A DNA stretch of 64,000 bases from Bacillota bacterium (GTDB lineage Bacteria > Bacillota_I > Bacilli_A > RF39 > UBA660), in contig SVAX01000003.1 in assembly GCA_015059155.1 (NCBI GenBank), positions 28,473 through 92,472 of the forward strand, read 5' to 3'. The position numbers and the translations under genes are program-made. Shown piece by piece: positions 6,757 to 46,242 of the stretch (within the stretch, counting starts at the first letter, position 1; the number at the start of each line of letters is the position of its first letter). The notes beneath the pieces were generated by a model, which saw only the letters and a program-made list of their open reading frames with translations, was not told the origin of the DNA and did no database searches.

Positions 6757-7533
6757 TTAACTAATTTTATTTTTAATATTATCAAGTGCGCTTTTTTCTA
6801 TTCTAGAAATCTGAGCTTGAGAGATCCCTATTTCACTAGCTAATTCCATTTGAGTTTTTCCAGTTATGTATCGCTCAATAATTATATATTTTTCCTTATC
6901 TTTTAAATCATTTATAGCTTCTTTCAAAGCTACTTTTTCATCTATATATTTCATATTATTGTTTTTATCTTCTATTTGATCTTGAAGATATATAGTATCT
7001 CCTCCATCATTATAAATAGGTTCTGAAATACTTAAAGTATCTTTCATGCTATCTAAAGCATTACTTACTTCAAATTCGGTTAATCCTAATCTTTCTGATA
7101 TTTCTTTAATACTAGGTTCCCTATTTAATTTATTAGTAAGTTCTTCTTTTATTTGAAAAGCATGATAAGCTATATCTTTAATACTTCTAGCTATCCTAAC
7201 ACTAGTATTATCTCTTAAATATCTTTTAACTTCCCCAAGTATCATAGGTACTGCATATGTTGAAAATTTTACATCAAAACTTAAATCAAAATTATCAATA
7301 GCTTTTATTAAACCTATACAACCTACTTGAAATAAATCATCCATATTATCACATCTATTATTATATCTCTTTAAAATACTCAAAACTAATTTTAAGTTCC
7401 CATTTACTAAATCTTCTTTAGCAAATTCATCCCCTTCTTTATATTTTTTAAATAATTCTACCATCTGTTCATTGCTTAAAACTTTTAAATTCGCAGTATT
7501 CACGCCACATATTTCAACCTTATGACGTGCCAT
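6757..7533 (-). CDS. sigG: sporulation sigma factor SigG
   Basis: 258 aa. MARHKVEICGV..., NGNLKLVLSI, DLFQVGCIGLIKAIDNFD, KFSTYAVPMILGE, EPIYNDGGD and ISQAQISRIEK are collinear with the B. subtilis SigG sequence as I recall it. Confidence 0.9.
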   Translation of the reverse strand: MARHKVEICGVNTANLKVLSNEQMVELFKKYKEGDEFAKEDLVNGNLKLVLSILKRYNNRCDNMDDLFQVGCIGLIKAIDNFDLSFDVKFSTYAVPMILGEVKRYLRDNTSVRIARSIKDIAYHAFQIKEELTNKLNREPSIKEISERLGLTEFEVSNALDSMKDTLSISEPIYNDGGDTIYLQDQIEDKNNNMKYIDEKVALKEAINDLKDKEKYIIIERYITGKTQMELASEIGISQAQISRIEKSALDNIKNKIS

Positions 7534-7671
7534 AATTATCTCCTTTCATTTTATAATGAACAGGAGCTCTTTGTTTTAAACAAATTTCTTATTATTGCTT
7601 GTAAAATAAGGGTTAAAAAGGCAAATGCTACAGCTTTCAACCTTATGACGTGCCATAATTATCTCCTTTCA
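7512..7671. repeat. perfect 37-bp direct repeat (7512-7548 and 7635-7671) duplicating the sigG SD plus its first 7 codons
   Basis: TTTCAACCTTATGACGTGCCATAATTATCTCCTTTCA read twice on the plus strand, 123 bp apart. Confidence 0.95.
7576..7656 (-). CDS. upstream ORF (26 aa, MARHKVESCSICLFNPYFTSNNKKFV) created by the duplicated sigG initiation region
   Basis: Same SD (GAAAGGAG) and first 7 codons as sigG; stops 40 nt before the sigG SD. Whether it is translated is unknown. Confidence 0.3.
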   Translation of the reverse strand: MARHKVESCSICLFNPYFTSNNKKFV

Positions 7672-7774
7672 AGATAATTATAATTAAATATTATTTTTTC
7701 AAACGGCAAAGTTGCGAAATCAATATATTTGTGATAAAATGTATTTAGTGAAGGAAACTTCATATAATATAAAA

Positions 7775-7858
7775 GGAACACTTAATATTGCTTTGTTGAG
7801 TGTTACCCAATAAATTGTGTAGCACCTAATTCAATGCTGAGTTAGGTGCCTTTTATTT
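7775..7858 (+). ncRNA. candidate antisense RNA (antitoxin-like) of small-ORF module 1
   Basis: TATAAT at 7763-7768. Hairpin AACACTTAA/TTGAGTGTT, then hairpin GCACCTAA(7822-7829)/TTAGGTGC(7842-7849) plus a T-run. Ends are approximate. Confidence 0.55.
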
Positions 7859-7942
7859 TAGTATTACAAAAAGTAACGCTATAAGCAAAAGGATGATAAT
7901 GATTAAAGAACAGATAAAAAAATCTTTCTTACTCACAAGCAT
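7853..7942 (-). CDS. small hydrophobic peptide (type I toxin-like), M(LV)SKKDFFICSLIIIILLLIALLFVILK
   Basis: TTGATA(8028-8023)-17 nt-TATAAT(8005-8000) promoter; GGAGG at 7949-7945. The ATG at 7942 is only 2 nt from the SD, so the in-frame GTG at 7936 (8-nt spacing) is the likelier start. One TM-length hydrophobic stretch. Confidence 0.55.
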   Translation of the reverse strand: MLVSKKDFFICSLIIIILLLIALLFVILK

Positions 7943-8051
7943 CACCTCCTATCTATTAAGATAGAGGTAGCACCCAACTATTAAATGTTCCTACATATAA
8001 TTATATCAAACATACATTCATATATCAATAGTATATGAATTTTTTTAAAAC

Positions 8052-12483: not shown

Positions 12484-14127
12484 TTATACTTCTTGTACAA
12501 CAATTATAATCATAGGTTTACTTTCAGTTTCTTTATAAAAATACTTACCTAATCTATCTCTTATACTAATTTTTAATTTATTATAATCTATATAATTTTC
12601 CTTTACATTTTCTTTAATTACTTCACCAACAATACTTTCTGCTTCTTTAATTATATCTATATTTTCTTTTACATAAATAAATCCCTTAGTTACAATGTTA
12701 GGTTTATTAATTATATTTCTACTTTGCTTATCTATATTAGCATTTACTATAACAATTCCACTATCACTTAACATTTCTCTATCTTTTAAAACTAAATCAC
12801 CAATATCCCCAACTGTTTTACCATCTATTAATACATCTTCTATAGATACTTTTTCATCATTATCAACAAGTTCTCCATCGATAAATGTAGTAACTTCTCC
12901 ATTTAATTTTAAAAGTATATTTTTATCAGGAATTTCAAGTTGTCTAGCTAGTATTGCATTTTCTACTTGATGTCGATATTCGCCAGTCACCGGTAAATAA
13001 TATTTAGGTTTCATTAAATTTATCATAAGCATAATATCTTCACTAGATGAATGAGGTGATAAATATTTTTTAGATAAAATAACTAGTTTTGATCCTACTT
13101 TAGATATTTTATTAAATACTTGAGTAGCAGTTATTTCACTACTTTCATATATAGGAGATAAAATTACTACTGTATCTTTTTCTTTTAAAGTAACAAACTT
13201 ATCTGAATTTCTAAGTATTCTTTTTAAACTAGAATAAGGTTTCTCTCTTTCATTAGATATAATTACAAGTATGCCTTCATCATTAACATGACTTATAGTT
13301 TTAATTCTTTCTCTATCAAAATCTATATAGCCAAAATCAATTCCTTTAAGTATTATATTTTCTAAGGCTTTTCCCATTATAACAACATTTCTATCAGTTT
13401 TGTATATTTCATTAAATAATTCTTGTATTCTATATATTTGAGTTTCAAAAATATTAAAAAATATTCTTCCCTCATTTTCATCAATTGTCTCTCTAATTAT
13501 TGAACTTGCCCTATGATTAGGAGAAGTAAATCCTTTTTTTTCAGCATACATTGATTCATTCATAAGACAAAGTACACTTTGTTTACCTATATAAGCAAGC
13601 TTACCTATATCAGTACTATAAGGGCCGTTCATAGATGGATCAAATATATAATTACCACTAAATACAATAGCACCATCTTTAGTATTTAATACATATAAAT
13701 AACTATCTGGTAAAGCATGTGATACTTGTATAGGGAAAATACTCTCTTCACCTAAATCTATCTTTTTATGAGCTTTTATTTCAATCAAATTAGCGCTCTT
13801 AATACTACTTTCTTCTAAATCTTGTTTAATTATTTCTAAAGTGAATTTACCTCCATATATTTTTATATCTGGAATATCTATTAATATATCACTTAAAGCT
13901 CCCATTTGTTGATCGTGACCATGTGTTATAAAAATTCCTTTAATCCTATCTTTGTTTTCTTTTAAATAATCATAATTAGGTATTATATAGTCTACACCAA
14001 GTAATTTATCATCTGCATATTTTAAACCTGCTTCAAATACATATATACGTTCATCAACTTCAACTATATACATATTTTTTCCTATTTCATTTTGCCCACC
14101 TAAAGCAAAAATTTTAATTTTACTCAT
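12484..14127 (-). CDS. rnj: ribonuclease J family protein with degenerate metallo-beta-lactamase motif II
   Basis: 547 aa with beta-CASP/RNase J architecture. Motif reads THGHDQQMG where RNase J1 has HGHEDHIG. Confidence 0.8.
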   Translation of the reverse strand: MSKIKIFALGGQNEIGKNMYIVEVDERIYVFEAGLKYADDKLLGVDYIIPNYDYLKENKDRIKGIFITHGHDQQMGALSDILIDIPDIKIYGGKFTLEIIKQDLEESSIKSANLIEIKAHKKIDLGEESIFPIQVSHALPDSYLYVLNTKDGAIVFSGNYIFDPSMNGPYSTDIGKLAYIGKQSVLCLMNESMYAEKKGFTSPNHRASSIIRETIDENEGRIFFNIFETQIYRIQELFNEIYKTDRNVVIMGKALENIILKGIDFGYIDFDRERIKTISHVNDEGILVIISNEREKPYSSLKRILRNSDKFVTLKEKDTVVILSPIYESSEITATQVFNKISKVGSKLVILSKKYLSPHSSSEDIMLMINLMKPKYYLPVTGEYRHQVENAILARQLEIPDKNILLKLNGEVTTFIDGELVDNDEKVSIEDVLIDGKTVGDIGDLVLKDREMLSDSGIVIVNANIDKQSRNIINKPNIVTKGFIYVKENIDIIKEAESIVGEVIKENVKENYIDYNKLKISIRDRLGKYFYKETESKPMIIIVVQEV

Positions 14128-14358: not shown

Positions 14359-15396
14359 TTATTTTAAATTAAATGTTGGTACAGTTATAACTGGACGAAC
14401 ACCATAGGCTCCTTCAGCTTCCCAGAAGGCTGATTCGAATATTTCATCTCCCATATAGTACACAGCTAAAAGATTCCCGGACCAAGTTCCTGCAGTGTCA
14501 AGTAAATAATATCCTCCAATACCTGATACTTCATTGTTTGAAACTCCACCTTCTCTCATATAATTATATAAAAACGCATTTGAACCAGTTTCCTCATCAT
14601 AAACCGATACTTCTGATAATTTTGGTAATCTTGCTTTTGTTGTTATCAAAAAATCTTTATAGAATCCATTTTCATCATCATAAGTTTCATTTAATCTTAA
14701 GACTTCCTTCCATTCTTCTGTTGCATTATTTAAATGATCCATTGCATCTTCAGGTCCTGAATCCATTGTATTTACTGGGCAAGTATTCTCTTTTGTTGCA
14801 AACGTTCCATCTTCACATATATTTCTTTCTAGTATTAAATTAATTGTTCCATTTGTATTACTTCCAAGTACATAGAATGTATATCCTTCTTTATTTTCTA
14901 AATCCATTTCAGCTTTTACTTTACAAGTATATTTATCTCCTACACTTATTCCTGCTGGAAGTACATCTCCATTTTCTGCTAATAAACATAATGGAACAGC
15001 ATGATTACAACTAGATATATCTTGCTTATTAACATTCACTTCAACATTTCTTACAAGTTTTCCATTTTTATTAATAGATGTAGATATTTTTATTTTTATA
15101 TCATCAGATATTTCTTTATTATTTTTAGGATCTAATATTTTATTATCTAAGATGCCGTATTTTTTTAAATCTTCTACTGTTAAATAACTACATTCTCCAC
15201 CGTATGATAATAACTCTAAATTATCTGGTATCCATAAGTCTGTAGCTGATTTTATTAAATTAATTTGTGTAGCAGATAAATCATTTTTAGCATCACTAAA
15301 CATTTTTGTAACTGCTGTTGATGTAAGTAGTGCGAGTAAAGCAAGTATTATAACAACAGCTAATAATTCAACTAAAGTAAAACCCTTTGTATTCAT
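14359..15396 (-). CDS. prepilin-type N-terminal cleavage/methylation domain protein (pseudopilin-like, 345 aa)
   Basis: MNTKG/FTLVELLAVVIIL class III signal (G-1, E+5). N-terminal ~115 aa shared with 15782..17152; C-terminal domain differs. Confidence 0.85.
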   Translation of the reverse strand: MNTKGFTLVELLAVVIILALLALLTSTAVTKMFSDAKNDLSATQINLIKSATDLWIPDNLELLSYGGECSYLTVEDLKKYGILDNKILDPKNNKEISDDIKIKISTSINKNGKLVRNVEVNVNKQDISSCNHAVPLCLLAENGDVLPAGISVGDKYTCKVKAEMDLENKEGYTFYVLGSNTNGTINLILERNICEDGTFATKENTCPVNTMDSGPEDAMDHLNNATEEWKEVLRLNETYDDENGFYKDFLITTKARLPKLSEVSVYDEETGSNAFLYNYMREGGVSNNEVSGIGGYYLLDTAGTWSGNLLAVYYMGDEIFESAFWEAEGAYGVRPVITVPTFNLK

Positions 15397-15781: not shown

Positions 15782-17152
15782 TTATTCCACCACATAATAA
15801 CTTATTCCTCCACTCGTTGTTCCTGTTCCTACTATAGATACATCAGATTTCAGATATAGGACAGGGCGAACCTCGATGGGGTTGCTGGCGTCGCAGTGGC
15901 TGACATTGCCAGGCGAACCCACAGCGAACACGCCACTCCAGTAATTGGAAATAGGGGTAATCGTCCACTGGTTTATTGATATCCAATCGGTTCCTTTACA
16001 TGATGTTGTTGTATCATAGTTATATGGTTCCTTATTACATTGCCCTAAGTCTGCTCCATATCCATAATCACTTGGATACATGAGTCCTATCTTTCCTACC
16101 CATTCTATTGGATTACCTGTATATCTTGTTGTTCCTCTTTCATATACATACCAATCATTTGTATATGGAATCTCATAAGTTGAAGTTCCTCCTAGGTTCC
16201 ATAGTACATTTTCTACTTTGCTTTGTGCATTTGCACTTAATCCATTACTTGTAAAATCTACACTTGTTGGTTTTGTTCTATTATAATAACTTGTTGTAGT
16301 TGAATTATAGTATGCACCATTTAACATTGTATTTAATGTTGCTGTACTCCAATTGTTTGTATAACTTCCACTTGATGTGTAATCCCAAACATAATCTCGT
16401 ATTGAATCTGCTCTTATTATTTTTACTAGTTTATCTGTAGCACAGTTATCATAGTGTAAATCTCCATCAGAGTCTGTATCACAAGGTTTATCAGTTGTTG
16501 CATACTTTGTTTCAAATACTCCGATTATTCTCCATAGTATTACATTACCACTTGAATCTCTATCTCCTATATCTACATAGTTATTTGGATTTGCTCCATA
16601 GTATCTTATGTTTCCTCCACTTGATACTGTTCCACCTAGTCTATCGTCCATTAAATTATTTGTTGTATCTAAACTATATGTTATTCCATCTACTTCTAAA
16701 CTATTTATTTTTGTTGTACTATTATTATATAAATCTGTTATATACTGTGCTAAAGTTAGAAAATGATTACATCCATCTACATTTTCTGGATTAACTTCAA
16801 TATTTCTTATAAGTTTTCCATATTCACTAGTAGTTGCTGATATTTTTATAATTAAATCATCATCTATGTTTTTATTGTTTTTAGGATCTAATATTTTACT
16901 ATCTAATAACCCATATTTTTTTAAATCTCCAAGAGTTAAATAACCGCATTGATTATTATCTGGTAGTTGTTTTAAATTATCTGCCATCCATATCTCAGTA
17001 GCTTCTTTTATTAATTTAATTTGTGTATTAGATAAATCATTTTTAGCATCACTAACTAATTTTGTAACTGCTGTCGATGTAAGTAGTGCGAGTAAAGCAA
17101 GTATTATTACAACAGCTAATAATTCAACTAAAGTAAAACCCTTTGTATTCAT
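15782..17152 (-). CDS. prepilin-type N-terminal cleavage/methylation domain protein (pseudopilin-like, 456 aa) with GC-rich mosaic C-terminal segment
   Basis: Same class III signal and N-terminal module as the 345-aa paralog. Own copy of the promoter, with -10 at 17182-17177. Confidence 0.85.
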   Translation of the reverse strand: MNTKGFTLVELLAVVIILALLALLTSTAVTKLVSDAKNDLSNTQIKLIKEATEIWMADNLKQLPDNNQCGYLTLGDLKKYGLLDSKILDPKNNKNIDDDLIIKISATTSEYGKLIRNIEVNPENVDGCNHFLTLAQYITDLYNNSTTKINSLEVDGITYSLDTTNNLMDDRLGGTVSSGGNIRYYGANPNNYVDIGDRDSSGNVILWRIIGVFETKYATTDKPCDTDSDGDLHYDNCATDKLVKIIRADSIRDYVWDYTSSGSYTNNWSTATLNTMLNGAYYNSTTTSYYNRTKPTSVDFTSNGLSANAQSKVENVLWNLGGTSTYEIPYTNDWYVYERGTTRYTGNPIEWVGKIGLMYPSDYGYGADLGQCNKEPYNYDTTTSCKGTDWISINQWTITPISNYWSGVFAVGSPGNVSHCDASNPIEVRPVLYLKSDVSIVGTGTTSGGISYYVVE

Positions 17153-21464: not shown

Positions 21465-21582
21465 AATATCACTTCCTATTGATAATATATTATAATTATT
21501 TCATTTTGTCAACATGTTTGACAAATATAGCAAAGATGTGCTAAAATGTATTTACTGAAAGAAAACTTCATATAATAAAAAA

Positions 21583-21668
21583 GGAACACTTAACATTGCA
21601 GTGTTGAGTGTTGCCGATTTAATTGGTTCCACCTAAATCATTGCTGAGTTAGGTGGATTTCTTTTATA
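21583..21668 (+). ncRNA. candidate antisense RNA of small-ORF module 2
   Basis: TATAAT at 21571-21576. Hairpin AACACTTAAC.../...GTTGAGTGTT, then CCACCTAA(21629-21636)/TTAGGTGG(21649-21656) plus a T-run. Confidence 0.5.
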
Positions 21669-21734
21669 TTAATACTATAAATAGGAAGAATAGTAAAAGG
21701 AAGATAATTATATTAAAAAATCCTTCTTGTTCAT
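21664..21734 (-). pseudogene. frameshifted type I toxin-like small ORF (module 2)
   Basis: GGAGG-7 nt-ATG(21734). MNKKDF, then a T6 run (plus-strand A6 at 21715-21720) and a stop after 8 codons. With T7, as in copy 1, it would read MNKKDFFNIIIFLLLFFLFIVLI. Promoter TTGAAT-18 nt-TGcTATAAT is intact. Confidence 0.5.
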
Positions 21735-21883
21735 CTTATCGCCTCCTACATCAAGAAATTTTGCTCCACCCAACTATTAAATGTTCCTACTATATTATAG
21801 CAAAGCCCTACATCACAATTCAATGTTATTTATTGATTATTTGTATATTTCATAAAACATACACTTTTGTGTATGTTTCTTTT

Positions 21884-24678: not shown

Positions 24679-24832
24679 AAAATTGGTAAAATTTAATTGC
24701 CAGTTTTTTATTTCTAATTGCCATCTATTTATGTGTATATCAACAAGAAAATTATAACATTACAAATTATTGATTTTAAATAAAAAGTGTGTTATTATAA
24801 ATATGTCAAGGAAACTTGCATATAATAAAAAA

Positions 24833-24916
24833 GGATACATTTGATTGTGCGAATCAAATGCATTCCCTTATTGGATTGCATCTGAAATCAACGGTTGTTG
24901 AAATCAGATGTTTTTA
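24833..24916 (+). ncRNA. candidate antisense RNA of small-ORF module 3
   Basis: TATAAT at 24821-24826. Hairpin CATTTGATT/AATCAAATG (24838-24860), then an imperfect hairpin at 24879-24910 plus T5. Confidence 0.55.
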
Positions 24917-24994
24917 TTATTTAAATAGTAAGGTGATTACTACAAAAAATAATAGTAGAATTATAATAAATTGAGATAATTCTCTTTTTGTCAT
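24917..24994 (-). CDS. small hydrophobic peptide (type I toxin-like), MTKRELSQFIIILLLFFVVITLLFK
   Basis: TTGATA(25090-25085)-17 nt-TATAAT(25067-25062). The 5' UTR hairpin CCUUUCUU-GAAA-AAGAAAGG covers the start of the SD AAGGUGG. ATG at 24994; the stop abuts the sRNA terminator. Confidence 0.6.
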   Translation of the reverse strand: MTKRELSQFIIILLLFFVVITLLFK

Positions 24995-25118
24995 AATTAA
25001 CCACCACCTTTCTTTTTCAAGAAAGGGAAAGCATCTGATATTTTCAAATGTATCCATTAGTATTATATCAAACATATATTCTTATATCAATAGTATATGT
25101 TTGATTTTTTTATATTTT

Positions 25119-27918: not shown

Positions 27919-29353
27919 ATTCCTCCTTTATTAATCCTTTGTAACCTAGTTTTTCTTCAATTTTATAAGCTATATTTAAAGTTTCACCATCTTTAAATTG
28001 AGGCCCTGTTATATTTATTCCTACAGGCATATCATTAACAAATCCATTTGGTATTGTTATACTAGGATATCCTCCAAAGTTAGCAATTGCCATATGATTT
28101 TCAAGAATTAAATATCTATCGCTCATTCTATCTATAGCATCATCAAATTTAGGTGCGATACCACCACTAGCTGGAAGGATCATAGCATCATATTCTTTAT
28201 ATAATTCATTCATTTTGTCTACTATAATACGTCTTAATCTTTGTGCATTCTTAAATAATCTTTCTTGATTTTCTTTTTGTAATATATAACTACCTAAAAT
28301 AAACCTTCTTTTTATAAGTTCACTAAATCCTTTGGTTCTGGCATCAAACATAATATCATTTATATTATTTCCTTCGCCCCTAGGGCCAAATATAATACCA
28401 GTAAGATTAGAATTATTGCTTGTTGCTTCTGCACAACTAATAGTCATATAAGCTGGATATATAGCCTTTAATAGTTTCTCATCAAGAGATACTTCTTCAA
28501 CTATAAAACCTAATTGTCTACACTTGTCTATTGTTTCTTTAAACCTAGTTAATACCTCTAACGTTTCACTACCAGCATCTTTATACATTTCTAAATCAGT
28601 TATTTCTTTAATATAGAAAAGTTTTTTACCTTTTATATCATTATTTAACATATCAGTATATTTTATATTTTCATCAGGCAAAGATGTCATATCTCTTTCA
28701 TCTTTTCCTTTTAGGATATCAGTAACAATAGCTGCATCTTTAACACATCTAGTAAAGCAACCTACATGGTCTAAACTTGATGCGAATGCGAATAATCCAT
28801 ATCTAGAAATTCTACCATATGTTGGTTTAAATCCTACTACGCCACCAAAAGCAGCCGGCTTCCTTATTGAATCTCCCGTATCTGAACCAATTGAAAATGG
28901 TACTATACCAAGTGCGACACTTGCTGCAGAACCTGCAGATGATCCACCTATTTGTCTTTCTTTATCCCAAGGATTTCTAACTATCCCTGTATGACCTGTT
29001 GTTCCAGTTCCTCCCATAGCAAGTTCATCAAGAACAGTTTTACCAACTAAAACTGCACCTGCTTCTTTTAATTTTTTATATACGGTAGCATCATATACTG
29101 GAATATAATCTTTTAATATATTTGATGATGATGTAGAAAGTATTCCTTTTGTTGAAAAATTATCTTTTAAAGAATATGGAATACCATTTAATAATGTGTT
29201 GGCATCAACTTTACTGTATTCATCTATTATAGTTACAAACGAATTATATTCTTCTTGATATTTATGAGCTTTAATGTTTGATTCATTAAATAATTCTTCA
29301 CTAGTTATTTTGGAAGTATCTAAATCATTTCTTAAATCCATTATAGTTTTCAT
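27908..29353 (-). CDS. gatA: Asp/Glu-tRNA amidotransferase subunit A
   Basis: Amidase signature GGSSAGSAASVA. Confidence 0.93.
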   Translation of the reverse strand: MKTIMDLRNDLDTSKITSEELFNESNIKAHKYQEEYNSFVTIIDEYSKVDANTLLNGIPYSLKDNFSTKGILSTSSSNILKDYIPVYDATVYKKLKEAGAVLVGKTVLDELAMGGTGTTGHTGIVRNPWDKERQIGGSSAGSAASVALGIVPFSIGSDTGDSIRKPAAFGGVVGFKPTYGRISRYGLFAFASSLDHVGCFTRCVKDAAIVTDILKGKDERDMTSLPDENIKYTDMLNNDIKGKKLFYIKEITDLEMYKDAGSETLEVLTRFKETIDKCRQLGFIVEEVSLDEKLLKAIYPAYMTISCAEATSNNSNLTGIIFGPRGEGNNINDIMFDARTKGFSELIKRRFILGSYILQKENQERLFKNAQRLRRIIVDKMNELYKEYDAMILPASGGIAPKFDDAIDRMSDRYLILENHMAIANFGGYPSITIPNGFVNDMPVGINITGPQFKDGETLNIAYKIEEKLGYKGLIKEEYDV

Positions 29354-29643
29354 TATCCCACCACCTTAGGTACTTTAACTTGATTAGCTTTAGTTTCTTT
29401 AGCATTACTTAAAACTTCTTCTTCAGTTAAACATTCTTTTGATTCATCTTCTCTTAACGAACTGTGATAAATTACATAAGGAAAAGTCATTGGGTCAACT
29501 TCTTCTATCCCTTCTATTTGACCTATAAGTGCCATATGTTTTTCTATTGTCTCAAATTCTTCTAAAGTTCTATCATAACCTTTATCATCCATATCAAACA
29601 TTAATTTTCCAGCATAGTCTTTTAATTTTTCTTTTGTTACCAT
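29353..29643 (-). CDS. gatC: Asp/Glu-tRNA amidotransferase subunit C
   Basis: 96 aa. Start trimmed to MVTKEK with AAGGAGG SD; precedes gatA with overlapping stop/start. Confidence 0.85.
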   Translation of the reverse strand: MVTKEKLKDYAGKLMFDMDDKGYDRTLEEFETIEKHMALIGQIEGIEEVDPMTFPYVIYHSSLREDESKECLTEEEVLSNAKETKANQVKVPKVVG

Positions 29644-29660
29644 AATATCCTCCTTATAAA

Positions 29661-29685
29661 CAAAAAACAAGTCTTAAGACTTGTT
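29661..29685 (-). terminator. hairpin plus U-run between the tRNA-Asn genes and gatC (weak terminator or processing signal)
   Basis: AACAAGTC-TTAA-GACTTGTT followed by TTTT(G) on the minus strand, ending 10 nt before the gatC SD. Confidence 0.5.
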
Positions 29686-29697
29686 ACTATTTTAAAA

Positions 29698-29773
29698 TGG
29701 CGCCTCTTGTAGGACTCGAACCTACGACCTAACGGTTAACAGCCGTGCGCTCTACCGACTGAGCTAAAGAGGC
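29698..29773 (-). tRNA. tRNA-Asn (GTT), CCA encoded
   Basis: Cloverleaf folded by eye: GCCTCTT acceptor, anticodon loop CTGTTAA, TTCGAGT T-loop, discriminator G. Confidence 0.9.
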
Positions 29774-29781
29774 ATTTAAAA

Positions 29782-29857
29782 TGGCGCCTGATGTAGGACT
29801 CGAACCTACGACCTAACGGTTAACAGCCGTGCGCTCTACCGACTGAGCTAATCAGGC
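29782..29857 (-). tRNA. tRNA-Asn (GTT), CCA encoded
   Basis: Nearly identical to the first copy; acceptor GCCTGAT/ATCAGGC. Confidence 0.9.
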
Positions 29858-29859
29858 AA

Positions 29860-30124
29860 TTTAAATAGCAATCCGTCTCTATTTCTTGGGACGAATTATT
29901 TCCGCGGTGCCACCCAAATTGTCATAAAAAAATGACCACTTTACCGATTCTATCAAATCGAGTAACTTTTAACGGGTTACATCCGATTAACTTTACTTTG
30001 TTCAAGTTAATAGTTCATGAGTGTTATTCATAATATACTTAATTGTTAGCTCACACCATACCTAACTCGCTTTTATTAGTTTATATCATTACTTCTCTCA
30101 ATCAACACTTTTCAAAAGGCTTAT
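29860..30124 (-). promoter_or_regulatory. T-box leader with Asn (AAC) specifier
   Basis: TTGACA(30159-30154)-17 nt-TATAAT(30136-30131). Stem I shows AGAGA/AGTA elements and a distal-loop TGGTGTGA. Specifier GAAU-AAC-A has its codon at 30025-30023. T-box sequence AATTTGGGTGGCACCGCGG lies at 29920-29902. The UGGC bulge matches discriminator G plus CCA of the downstream tRNA-Asn. TTCGTC...GACGGA is the alternative helix. Confidence 0.75.
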
Positions 30125-43846: not shown

Positions 43847-44052
43847 TATTTCACCTCTATTTTTTCTTCTATATATAATTCATTCATCATTTCTTCTGTA
43901 AATGTGTCAGGTACAAATATAGTTGTTGAATAATATGGAAAGTGTTCTTCCCCTGTTTCTTTATCTATAAAATATATATCATCAACACTTCTTATCTGTT
44001 TACCTTCATCAGATATTATCATTTTAGGTTTAGTATAAGTAAATAATTTCAT
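43846..44052 (-). CDS. phage hypothetical protein (68 aa)
   Basis: ORF track 43846..44067 trimmed to MKLF (start overlaps the upstream stop). Confidence 0.5.
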   Translation of the reverse strand: MKLFTYTKPKMIISDEGKQIRSVDDIYFIDKETGEEHFPYYSTTIFVPDTFTEEMMNELYIEEKIEVK

Positions 44053-44963
44053 TAACTCACCACCCATCCCTTATTTGTTATTGAGTTCAATTCATTGGCA
44101 TTTAATTTTAAGATGTTTTCGGCACCAATTACAAATTGCTGTGTATATAATGAGCCACCGTTTGCTACATCATAAGTTAAATTTAAATCATATAAACCAT
44201 TTATTACACTCATTAAACTTTCATATGATAACTTTGGTGAACCACTTAAATCCATTTTATAATAGGAGTAATTGTTTTCATTTTGTACAAATGCTTTTCC
44301 TAAATTTGTACCAAATTTTAAGTTTTCTAAGTTAGGACATCTTAGCATCATATAATATATCTTTGGCAAGTTGCTAAAATCAAAACTACTCATATTTAAA
44401 TTTTTTAAATTCCTACAATTACTAAAAATATTTGCAATTTCTGTTACCTTACTTATATTAAAGTTTTTTAAATCTAATGATTCTAGTGTTGTCATATTAT
44501 AAAACATGCTATTTATATGTGTCGCATTTGATGTATCAAAACTACTAACATCTATTTCTTTTAAATTATAACAATTACCAAACATGTTTGAAAAATCTTT
44601 GCCTTTGCTAGTATTTAAATTTTTTAGATTTAATTTTTTTAATGCACCGCAATTATAAAACATGTTACTAAAGGAAGTACATTGACTAGTATCAAAGTTA
44701 CTTAAATCAACTTCAGTTAAAAGATTTCCAGAATGATAAAACATATAATAACAACTTGTAACATTTTTACATAAAGCTAATAATTCGTATAAACAATTTA
44801 GTCTTTCTCCACTTGCAAACAAATAATAGCAACTATTTATTTCAAATTTATCTATAAGTGTACTTACATCAGGAAGTTGATTTATTGTATTATTAATATC
44901 TTCAAGAGATGAATTATTTTCGGTTAATCTTTCATTATAATTTTGTAATCTTTCTTTGTTCAT
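44052..44963 (-). CDS. DUF285/BspA-type leucine-rich-repeat protein (phage, candidate receptor-binding protein)
   Basis: Repeats of the ~26-aa unit L.NFDTS..T....MF..C..L. C-terminal 55 aa shared with 44974..46242. Confidence 0.7.
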   Translation of the reverse strand: MNKERLQNYNERLTENNSSLEDINNTINQLPDVSTLIDKFEINSCYYLFASGERLNCLYELLALCKNVTSCYYMFYHSGNLLTEVDLSNFDTSQCTSFSNMFYNCGALKKLNLKNLNTSKGKDFSNMFGNCYNLKEIDVSSFDTSNATHINSMFYNMTTLESLDLKNFNISKVTEIANIFSNCRNLKNLNMSSFDFSNLPKIYYMMLRCPNLENLKFGTNLGKAFVQNENNYSYYKMDLSGSPKLSYESLMSVINGLYDLNLTYDVANGGSLYTQQFVIGAENILKLNANELNSITNKGWVVS

Positions 44964-44973
44964 ATTTTACCCC

Positions 44974-46242
44974 CTAACTTACCGTCCAGCCTTTATTAAT
45001 TACTATATTCAGTTCTTCACTTGTTAATTTGGCAATATTTTTGGCTCCGATTATTAATTTTTGTGTATATAAAGTACCACCATTTGCTACATCGTATGTT
45101 AAATTTAAGTCATATAATTTATTTATAACATCCATTAAACTTTCGTAGGTTAAGTCATTTGAATAATGTAAATCTATTTGATAACTACTACTATTGTTTG
45201 ATTTTTTAGTAAAACCTTTTCCTAAATTATTCATGAAAATTAAATCCTCTAAATCTCCAATATAATAAAAAGCATTATAAATATCATTTACTTTACTCGC
45301 ATCCCAAGTACCTAGATTTATACTTCTCAAAGTGGAAGTGGTGTAATAAAATAATTCTCTCATTGAAGTCACATTGCTTGTATCAAAATTGCTTAAATCA
45401 AACTCTTTAAACCCTGTTTGTTTAAATATTCCGTCAAGTTTTGTAACTTTGCTCGTATTAAATTTTTCTAATCCTATTATTTTTCCTAAATTATAACAAC
45501 TATAAAACATATTAGTCATATCTGTCACATTACTTGTGTCAAAATTACTTAAATCTATCTGATAAGAAATTTTTCTTGCGCCGTTATAAAACATGTGGCT
45601 ACAACTTGTAACATTTTCACATAAGTCAAGAAGCTCATTTATATTACTAAGTCTTCCGCCATTATAAAACAAATAAGAAGCATCATTTATTTTAAAACTA
45701 CTTACTTTTGCTAATCCATCAACACCAAATATATTGACACCACTTTTAATATTTTCAGGTATTAAATCTTCATCTCCTGCTACATTTACTTTGTTATATA
45801 TTCCCTCAATAGTTTGTTGCTCAGTTGTTGGAGTTACATTTAATTCTTTTGGTTCTATAAGACCTTTTCCTCTTAAAGTTTCTAAAATGTCATTAATCTC
45901 TAATTTTTGATTATTTATTTCTTCGTTATAAACATTTAATTCATTATCTAAATTTTCTATAGCATCTAAAATTATCTCAACTTCATTTAAACCAGAAAAA
46001 TCATCTTCGCATTTAATGGTATAAATACCATTTTTATTTAGTGTCAATTTTTTATCTTGCAAATTTATTGCATTTACTTTTACATTGTTATAACCATATT
46101 TATTAGATACAAAATTTTGGTCTATGCCCTTAGGAATAACAATTAAATTTTCTAATTCTGGATATTCTTTGATAGCATCAATTTCTAAACTACCAATATT
46201 AATTTCTTCATCTATAATTAGATTCCCAATATTAATTTCCAT
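44974..46242 (-). CDS. DUF285/BspA-type leucine-rich-repeat protein (phage, candidate receptor-binding protein)
   Basis: Same repeat (DLSNFDTSNVTDMTNMFYSCYNL) and the same C-terminal module YESLM.VIN.LYDLNLTYDVANGG.LYTQ. Confidence 0.7.
   Translation of the reverse strand: MEINIGNLIIDEEINIGSLEIDAIKEYPELENLIVIPKGIDQNFVSNKYGYNNVKVNAINLQDKKLTLNKNGIYTIKCEDDFSGLNEVEIILDAIENLDNELNVYNEEINNQKLEINDILETLRGKGLIEPKELNVTPTTEQQTIEGIYNKVNVAGDEDLIPENIKSGVNIFGVDGLAKVSSFKINDASYLFYNGGRLSNINELLDLCENVTSCSHMFYNGARKISYQIDLSNFDTSNVTDMTNMFYSCYNLGKIIGLEKFNTSKVTKLDGIFKQTGFKEFDLSNFDTSNVTSMRELFYYTTSTLRSINLGTWDASKVNDIYNAFYYIGDLEDLIFMNNLGKGFTKKSNNSSSYQIDLHYSNDLTYESLMDVINKLYDLNLTYDVANGGTLYTQKLIIGAKNIAKLTSEELNIVINKGWTVS

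Follow-up and report, generated by a model that had tools for sequence, protein, structure and literature searches.

The window analyzed here is a 64-kb stretch of contig SVAX01000003.1 from an uncultured Bacillota bacterium, with a G+C content of 26%. It contains exactly three copies of a ~300-bp module, in which a small hydrophobic open reading frame (ORF) on the minus strand faces a convergent, predicted antisense RNA gene on the plus strand. Repeat finding, alignment and an nhmmer profile all agreed on this number, which had also been given in an earlier interpretation made from the letters alone (the sequence-only reading). We describe the module as a candidate type I toxin-antitoxin system and refer to its two sides as the toxin and antisense sides. 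All three copies are intergenic and lie amid ordinary genes: copy 1 between a pair of XRE and formate-tetrahydrofolate (THF) ligase genes and a sporulation-type sigma factor gene, copy 2 between genes for an ABC-F ATPase and an SDF symporter, and copy 3 between genes for a DUF1846 protein and asparaginyl-tRNA synthetase (AsnRS). The copies, followed by the features of copy 1, are listed below (SD, Shine-Dalgarno sequence; UTR, untranslated region; sRNA, small RNA).

7694-8033, toxin on the minus strand: copy 1, a ~300-bp module
21516-21820, toxin on the minus strand: copy 2, both promoters and all RNA helices intact, ORF dead
24760-25095, toxin on the minus strand: copy 3, of a different subfamily
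8028-8000, minus: toxin promoter, with −35 TTGATA (8028-8023), a 17-nt spacer, TG (8008-8007) and −10 TATAAT (8005-8000)
7992-7768, minus: predicted toxin mRNA, ~225 nt, with leader, SD hairpin, ORF, 3′ UTR with two hairpin regions, and U-tract
7992-7966, minus: 5′ strand of the end-to-end helix (long-distance interaction, LDI), AGGAACAUUUAAUAGUUGGGUGCUACC, including the repeat copy 7967-7977
7967-7945, minus: anti-SD/SD stem-loop, CCUCUAUC-UUAAUA-GAUAGGAGG, with SD GGAGG at 7949-7945
7936-7853, minus: toxin ORF, GTG start, 27 codons plus stop, peptide (M)SKKDFFICSLIIIILLLIALLFVILK
7777-7761, minus: toxin terminator U-tract, UCCUUUUAUAUUAUAUG; the plus strand here holds a TATAAT box (7763-7768)
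7712-7740, plus: antisense promoter P1, TTGCGA-17-TGaTAAAAT, found by promoter scan
7747-7860, plus: predicted antisense sRNA, ~114 nt from P1, or ~87 nt if the TATAAT box also fires
7749-7762, plus: sRNA 5′ hairpin, UGAAG-GAAA-CUUCA, 5 bp with a GNRA loop
7774-7808, both strands: hairpin 1 region; plus, internal hairpin of the sRNA; minus, 3′ strand of the end-to-end helix and toxin terminator stem
7822-7849, both strands: hairpin 2; plus, intrinsic terminator of the sRNA, followed by CUUUUAUUUU; minus, hairpin in the toxin 3′ UTR

Conservation of the module and its two predicted transcripts

Relatives of the module were sought in one genome per GTDB species, using a pattern of two short motifs common to the three window copies. 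The scan returned 47 stretches, all but one of which contained real modules; the remaining stretch, in a Bacteroidota contig, was a chance match. An nhmmer profile built from the pattern finds and run over the same 8-kb stretches added ~20 further copies, giving a total of 69 non-redundant copies. The hosts are uncultured, low-GC Bacilli represented by gut metagenome-assembled genomes (MAGs) of goats, deer, reindeer, rabbits and humans (Hadza), most of them labeled ‘Bacilli bacterium’, ‘Tenericutes’ or ‘Erysipelotrichaceae’. Tandem arrays were present, with four copies at locus L021 and three to four each at L036 and L047, and the fragments retrieved from one MAG held at least 15 copies. Searches of plasmid and phage records and of IMG/VR contigs turned up no copy; the matches in viral contigs were chance matches within coding DNA. 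The formate-THF ligase that flanks copy 1 was found only on metagenome contigs. No Rfam covariance model, those of the type I antitoxin families (fstAT, RatA, SR4-type, Sok, Sib and others) included, reached its gathering score on the window or on 18 loci with ~35 copies. Two weak Rfam matches spanned the copy 1 RNAs in a search at E ≤ 10, rli28 (E 0.39) and SpF19 (E 1.4); both were far below gathering, were missing from copies 2 and 3, and were dismissed as chance. We found neither such peptides nor any type I system of these MAG lineages described in the literature.

On the minus strand, the toxin promoter of copy 1 scored 11/12 in the promoter scan and carried the TG extension. Equivalent promoters were called in copies 2 and 3, and a −10-like box occupied this position in 48/51 relatives. 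Transcription is predicted to start near A7992, and the proposed ends of the toxin mRNA are those expected from the positions of the promoter and the U-tract, the latter matching TCCTTTTWTATTATATG in 3/3 window copies. Downstream in the leader, CCUCUAUC (7967-7960) paired with GAUAGGAGG (7953-7945) in the local minimum free energy (MFE) structure. When the leader was folded alone, the SD and start codon had an unpaired probability of 0.32, compared with 0.46 when the upstream sequence was shuffled (p = 5e-4); in the full-length mRNA the family-wide mean was ~0.19.

The frame 7853-7945 on the minus strand is open and contains three candidate starts, of which only GTG 7936 has normal spacing, 8 nt past GGAGG; it aligns with the ATG of homologues. 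The most likely start in copy 1 is GTG 7936, with a product of 27 aa. Across the family the SD lies 7-9 nt upstream of the start, and 63-64/69 copies keep a 22-30-codon ORF at the same position behind the SD. The peptides fall into ~5-6 subfamilies that share only M-x-K-(K/R)-(D/E), ~20 hydrophobic residues, and then nothing or K/KK. Within subfamilies, the ratio of nonsynonymous to synonymous polymorphism (pN/pS) was 0.28, 0.17 and 0.51, and differences ranked 3>1>2 by codon position. Judged by these substitution patterns, the toxin ORF is under purifying selection and truly coding. The sequence-only reading had proposed this promoter, a hairpin hiding the SD and a small hydrophobic ORF of 27-29 codons; all three proved sound, with the start now narrowed to a single codon.

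The peptides had no match in Pfam or NCBIfam, even at E = 10, and an exact look-up of 10 of them among 15 billion predicted proteins found 0 present. Among ~55 distinct peptides there was no Trp, no charged tail beyond KK, no Pro or Gly in the transmembrane segment, and no PxxxG; the Fst/Ldr signature is thus missing, in agreement with the original impression that the peptide resembles neither Fst, TxpA nor BsrG. The ORF of copy 3 (24994-24917, minus) encodes MTKRELSQFIIILLLFFVVITLLFK. In 5-6/69 copies the toxin ORF was dead or truncated with the antisense side intact; these are copy 2 of the window and copies at loci L009, L034, L032 (3120-3408) and L048 (6361-6637). In copy 2 a 13-nt deletion has broken the frame, leaving MNKKDFLI*. 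The copy 2 sRNA is 87% identical to that of copy 1 across 67 nt, and could therefore act in trans on copy 1.

On the plus strand, equivalents of P1 were called in copy 2 (21518-21547) and copy 3 (24770-24798), and upstream of the 5′ hairpin every copy carries a canonical promoter of the form TTGnnn, 16-18 nt, TGnTAnnAT. The extended −10, as TGnTAnn(A/T)T, was present in 50/51 relatives and the −35 TTGnnn in 41/51. The sRNA 5′ hairpin was found in 62/63 sequences with at least eight different stems, its loops being mostly GNRA in the plus-strand sense. The search pattern had forced neither the P1 elements nor this hairpin. Because a covarying 5′ hairpin must be transcribed, we conclude that the upstream promoter P1 is the main antisense promoter. 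The sequence-only reading had instead started the antisense RNA from the TATAAT at 7763-7768. This box is present, but the role of main promoter passes to the conserved promoter 28 nt upstream (7712-7740); the box has no −35 element and no TG, and was not called by the promoter scan. Copies found without forcing the motif read TATAAT, TAAAAT or TACAAT at this box. This is the kind of variation expected of a −10 box, and transcription may therefore also start, weakly, at the base of hairpin 1.

The predicted ~114-nt sRNA, the ends of which were placed from these signals, folded with z = −6.9 and a protected 5′ end. The 87-nt plus-strand stretch 7774-7860 formed two hairpins (z = −6.5), as had been proposed. 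Hairpin 2, whose 5′ arm is the repeat copy 7819-7829, was the sole terminator called in the region (shuffles gave a mean of 0.1). An alignment of 63 distinct sequences of the sRNA side was analyzed with RNAalifold, which recovered both hairpins, with compensatory changes in 16/18 pairs; hairpin 1 has 10 pairs, and hairpin 2 has eight, of which seven showed compensatory changes. The sRNA and the toxin mRNA would overlap 3′ to 3′ by ~90 nt (roughly 7768-7858) with perfect complementarity, close to the ~80 nt first estimated. At the sequence level, the proposed convergent, structured antisense RNA gene is therefore well founded, with its own conserved promoter, terminator and covarying hairpins, and the structure-preserving variation in relatives on which the sequence-only reading had made its interpretation depend was found among the 69 copies.

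Long-distance pairing in the toxin mRNA

The toxin mRNA begins with ~26 nt (AGGAACAUUUAAUAGUUGGGUGCUACC) whose complement is found at the 3′ end of the same molecule, in the two arms of hairpin 1 and its 5′ flank. The resulting end-to-end helix was part of the MFE structure in 3/3 window copies, with z = −7.8, −4.9 and −10.7 for copies 1, 2 and 3; the copy 1 mRNA had an MFE of −73 kcal/mol with its 5′ and 3′ ends paired together. The helix was then scored in 59 distinct leader and 3′-end sequences at 20 named pairs, a total of 1166 cells. The results showed that 96.3% of the cells were paired, compared with 31-43% when the partner was slid, and that 120 cells had changed on both sides; 0/500 shuffles reached the observed value. 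For the competing local hairpin on the toxin strand, 89% of cells were paired and the fold was weak. The mean duplex energy was −33.4 kcal/mol for cognate and −21.9 kcal/mol for non-cognate ends, and the helix sequence varied by subfamily (UUGCC/GGCAA, UCACC/GGUGA, UUUCCC/GGGAA and UCUACC/GGUAGA).

Imperfections in these helices depended on the strand. In the end-to-end helix, read on the toxin strand, G·U outnumbered A·C by 105 to 14. In hairpin 1, read on the sRNA strand, the counts were 106 and 2, and when the same hairpin 1 DNA was read on the toxin strand they were 24 G·U and 55 A·C. Such a bias is not expected from inverted repeats that act as DNA, and argues for transcription of both strands. 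As far as comparative sequence evidence can tell, RNA from both strands is under selection.

The direct repeat GTAGCACCYAA occurred at exactly two sites in the 64 kb, 7819 and 7967, compared with 0.01 expected. According to the sequence-only reading, it provides a second contact, in which the sRNA terminator stem pairs with the toxin leader. The repeat is real, and leader and partner covary (GCUAC/GCUAC in copy 1, GGAGC/GGAAC in copy 2 and UCAGAUGC in copy 3). The leader paired with hairpin 2 of the sRNA in a cognate-specific way (−16.4 vs −12.5 kcal/mol). However, this contact is only 8-12 bp long, the terminator stem must open to make it, and it shares its leader bases with a 13-17-bp extension of the intramolecular helix. 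Moreover, all four hairpin arms carry the core motif CACYYAA, and a control pairing was likewise cognate-specific, so that the sRNA contact and the intramolecular helix are inseparable by sequence. Because the same leader bases belong to the longer and better-conserved intramolecular helix, the repeat can be explained without any pairing to the sRNA. We consider the leader-sRNA contact possible but unnecessary. By the predicted energies (−33 vs −16 kcal/mol) and the conservation of its pairs, the dominant RNA contact is the toxin mRNA's own 5′-3′ pairing.

The end-to-end helix was also considered as a translational switch, and was rejected in that role. With the 3′ UTR blocked, which mimics bound sRNA, SD openness was 0.22, compared with 0.19 when it was free, and removal of 48 nt from the mRNA 3′ end raised it from 0.19 to 0.25. 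Because SD openness was nearly constant under both treatments, the helix looks like an element of stability and termination, not a translational switch.

Surroundings of the module copies

The formate-THF ligase/sigG site holds a type-A-like module in the window (7694-8033) and a type-B module at the related locus L014 (6105-6450). In the L014 species the flanking proteins are 86-90% identical to those of the window, and the 74-aa XRE gene is missing. This suggests cassette turnover at a fixed site. Between copy 1 and the real SigG-like gene of the window lies a 45-bp duplication (7504-7548 / 7627-7671, 93% identical) consisting of the ribosome-binding site and first ~10 codons of that sigma gene; it creates a 26-codon decoy ORF (7656-7576). 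L014 lacks the duplication. In two other genomes tRNA genes directly adjoin modules (L016, 4855-4928; L050, 807-889).

The toxin promoter region AAACATATACTATTGATATATGAATATATGTTTGnTATAAT (8000-8046, 25062-25108 and many loci) is common to subfamilies whose transcribed parts differ. It contains a 9-bp inverted repeat across the −35, which on the other strand reads as a hairpin followed by a T-run. It may be an operator, or a stop for antisense read-through.

Elsewhere in the window, a gene for RNase J is located at 12484-14127. A 300-nt repeat, 81% identical (15034-15333 / 16790-17089), lies within the neighboring ORFs 14359-15396 and 15782-17152, which had no Pfam match and are probably paralogous genes. 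Two adjacent ORFs at 44052-46242 contain repeats with start-to-start spacings of 78 nt and 156 nt. At 29698-30114 the minus strand carries a T-box leader with a tandem pair of tRNA-Asn genes after it; gatC (29353-29670) comes next, and the remainder of a gatCAB-asnS block lies further downstream.

Interpretation and comparison with known systems

We regard it as probable that the copies are chromosomal modules of a type I toxin-antitoxin-like kind and form a previously undescribed family. Comparison of the copies establishes, at the level of sequence, the ORF, both promoters, all of the helices and selection on the RNA of both strands. The tandem arrays, the many copies per genome and the dead ORFs beside intact sRNA genes are population traits of the kind seen with toxin-antitoxin systems.

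In the mechanism that we propose, a strong sigma-A promoter would produce the ~225-nt mRNA for a 22-30-aa peptide with a short charged N-terminus and one transmembrane helix. The mRNA would be kept quiet and stable by the SD-hiding stem-loop and by the 20-28-bp helix between its 5′ and 3′ termini, which would take up both arms of the weak terminator hairpin. A second sigma-A promoter would produce the ~114-nt sRNA, with its 5′ GNRA hairpin, internal hairpin and terminator hairpin. The sRNA would pair with the toxin 3′ UTR, to which the 3′ strand of the end-to-end helix belongs, probably beginning at a single-stranded linker or at the A-rich stretch that faces the mRNA U-tail. The duplex, a substrate for RNase III, would be cut by this double-strand RNase, and the mRNA 5′ end, having lost its partner, would open to RNase J, an enzyme encoded within the window. 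As long as the sRNA was present, no toxin would be made. Such a mechanism may parallel the role of the 5′ helix of par RNA I (PMC7472228) and that of SR4 in decay (PMC3834814). A more specific version, offered tentatively and with rather less confidence than the module itself, is that the sRNA is an ‘unlocker’ more than a translation repressor: it would invade the end-to-end helix, terminator and seal of the mRNA at once, along its 3′ strand, and so make the 5′ end accessible to RNase J and the duplex to RNase III. In that case a single DNA segment would specify two RNA structures under selection: in the sRNA a local hairpin, in the mRNA a long-range helix.

Several points weigh against this interpretation. 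Transcription, toxicity of the peptide and the decay pathway are what we infer from the features above; SD accessibility did not respond to blocking of the 3′ UTR, which leaves a translational switch unsupported and the decay route as the inferred one. The local toxin terminator hairpin is weak and was not called by the terminator scan. Most of the sample came from a pattern that forced its two short motifs, with 20/69 copies found without it, and the covariation and asymmetry counts are of cells, not independent events, in copies belonging to only ~5-6 subfamilies.

The most serious rival is that the peptide is a regulated small membrane protein and not a toxin: it would do no harm and would serve a membrane complex as accessory subunit or as modulator, with the antisense RNA only tuning its level. 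The peptide lacks a recognizable toxin motif, its toxicity is only inferred, and some copies occupy fixed sites beside core genes across species, all of which this view accommodates. We nevertheless consider it unlikely, because the module shows a set of features that are typical for type I toxins but would be unusual in an accessory subunit: numerous divergent paralogues in one genome and tandem arrays, ORF decay with retention of the antisense gene, an mRNA locked twice (by the masked SD and by its sealed ends), and the coupling of a strong promoter to a full-length antisense RNA. A far less probable view makes the module a mobile or repeat element resembling a miniature inverted-repeat transposable element (MITE), in which the helix represents terminal inverted repeats recognized as DNA and the ORF and promoters are incidental. 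A length of ~300 bp, multiple intergenic copies, inverted repeats ~200 bp apart and the other subfamily at the same fhs-sigG site in a related species would suit such an element. Nearly all of the repeat imperfections, however, are G·U on one strand, with the opposite strand favored in hairpin 1; purifying selection acts on the ORF; the repeats do not include the conserved promoters; and viral contigs, plasmid records and phage records contained no real copy.

The sequence-only reading had labeled the layout par-style, which raises the prospect of a very divergent Fst/Ldr (par) member. Indeed, par loci likewise have promoters that face each other, a direct repeat read in opposite senses, a stem-loop that masks the SD and a 5′ end that is sequestered (PMC7472228). 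Against such membership, which we find as hard to credit as a MITE, the peptide has no Trp, charged C-terminal tail or PxxxG; the transcripts overlap over ~90 nt with two hairpins instead of sharing one terminator; the repeat is located 5′ of the SD and leaves the start site uncovered; and neither Pfam nor Rfam gave a match for the family even at E ≤ 10.

If the toxin-antitoxin interpretation is correct, a toxin-antisense RNA family is now represented in an uncultured lineage of low-GC gut Bacilli that had no annotated one. As gene callers overlook them, the peptides do not appear among 15 billion predicted proteins, and the module thus marks a blind spot in MAG annotation. The family is abundant and diverse and forms an unusually clean comparative set for a type I system, in which the two strands of one DNA stretch are each constrained by an RNA structure of their own. 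A further suggestion from the family is that an antisense RNA can act by opening a sealed 5′-3′ helix, and its peptides are candidate counter-selection markers in Firmicutes.

Among known toxins, Ibs and ShoB of E. coli and PepA1 of S. aureus are peptides of ~19-30 aa, almost wholly hydrophobic, with one transmembrane helix. The module peptides are like them in size and hydrophobicity, but the sequences are unrelated and the RNA layouts differ. In layout, the module is closest to txpA/RatA and bsrG/SR4 of Bacillus subtilis, with which it shares convergent genes, a ~100-nt cis-antisense RNA over the 3′ end of the toxin mRNA, a small hydrophobic peptide toxin and a Firmicute host. The layout is that of the Gram-positive class with the antisense RNA on the 3′ side (PMC8594479), and SR4 acts on both mRNA decay and translation (PMC3834814). 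The comparison with txpA/RatA made in the sequence-only reading therefore stands, as a 3′-overlap type together with bsrG/SR4, but par no longer serves as the nearest layout. Unlike txpA/RatA and bsrG/SR4, the module has peptides without sequence similarity to theirs (no TxpA, BsrG, BsrE or YonT homology in Pfam/NCBIfam at E ≤ 10), an overlap essentially confined to the 3′ UTR (the stop codon and a few codons), mRNA ends sealed by a long 5′-3′ helix, and locations outside prophages.

The par system (Fst RNA I/RNA II) of Enterococcus faecalis pAD1 combines convergent promoters, a direct repeat read in opposite senses and an SD-masking 5′ stem-loop, and the ‘upstream helix’ of its RNA I sequesters the extreme 5′ end and stabilizes the toxin RNA (PMC7472228). 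The module has counterparts of all of these; its SD stem-loop and 5′-end helix appear analogous to the par elements, homology not being demonstrable. The two systems differ in the absence of the Fst/Ldr signature from the module peptides, in the ~90-nt overlap with two hairpins where par has a single shared bidirectional terminator, and in the position of the repeat: 7967-7977 ends 18 nt upstream of the SD, whereas DRa/DRb of par cover the toxin SD and start codon. The module sRNA is ~114 nt long, compared with ~40-65 nt for par RNA II, and the 5′-end helix of the module has 20-28 bp and finds its partner at the very 3′ end.

Closure of the full-length toxin mRNA by 5′-3′ long-distance pairing links the module to hok/Sok of plasmid R1 and to aapA1/IsoA1 of Helicobacter pylori, the aapA1 mRNA being closed in the same way. 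No Gram-positive type I system is known to combine hok-like end-sealing with a 3′-UTR antisense RNA. In hok, as Franch et al. (1997) are summarized in PMC8594479, processing of the 3′ end triggers a refolding that allows translation and antisense binding. Both of these systems are from Gram-negative hosts, their antisense RNAs are directed at the 5′ portion of the mRNA, and hok also carries a leader ORF, whereas the antisense RNA of the module would target the 3′ strand of the closing helix and matches the leader over only 8-12 nt.

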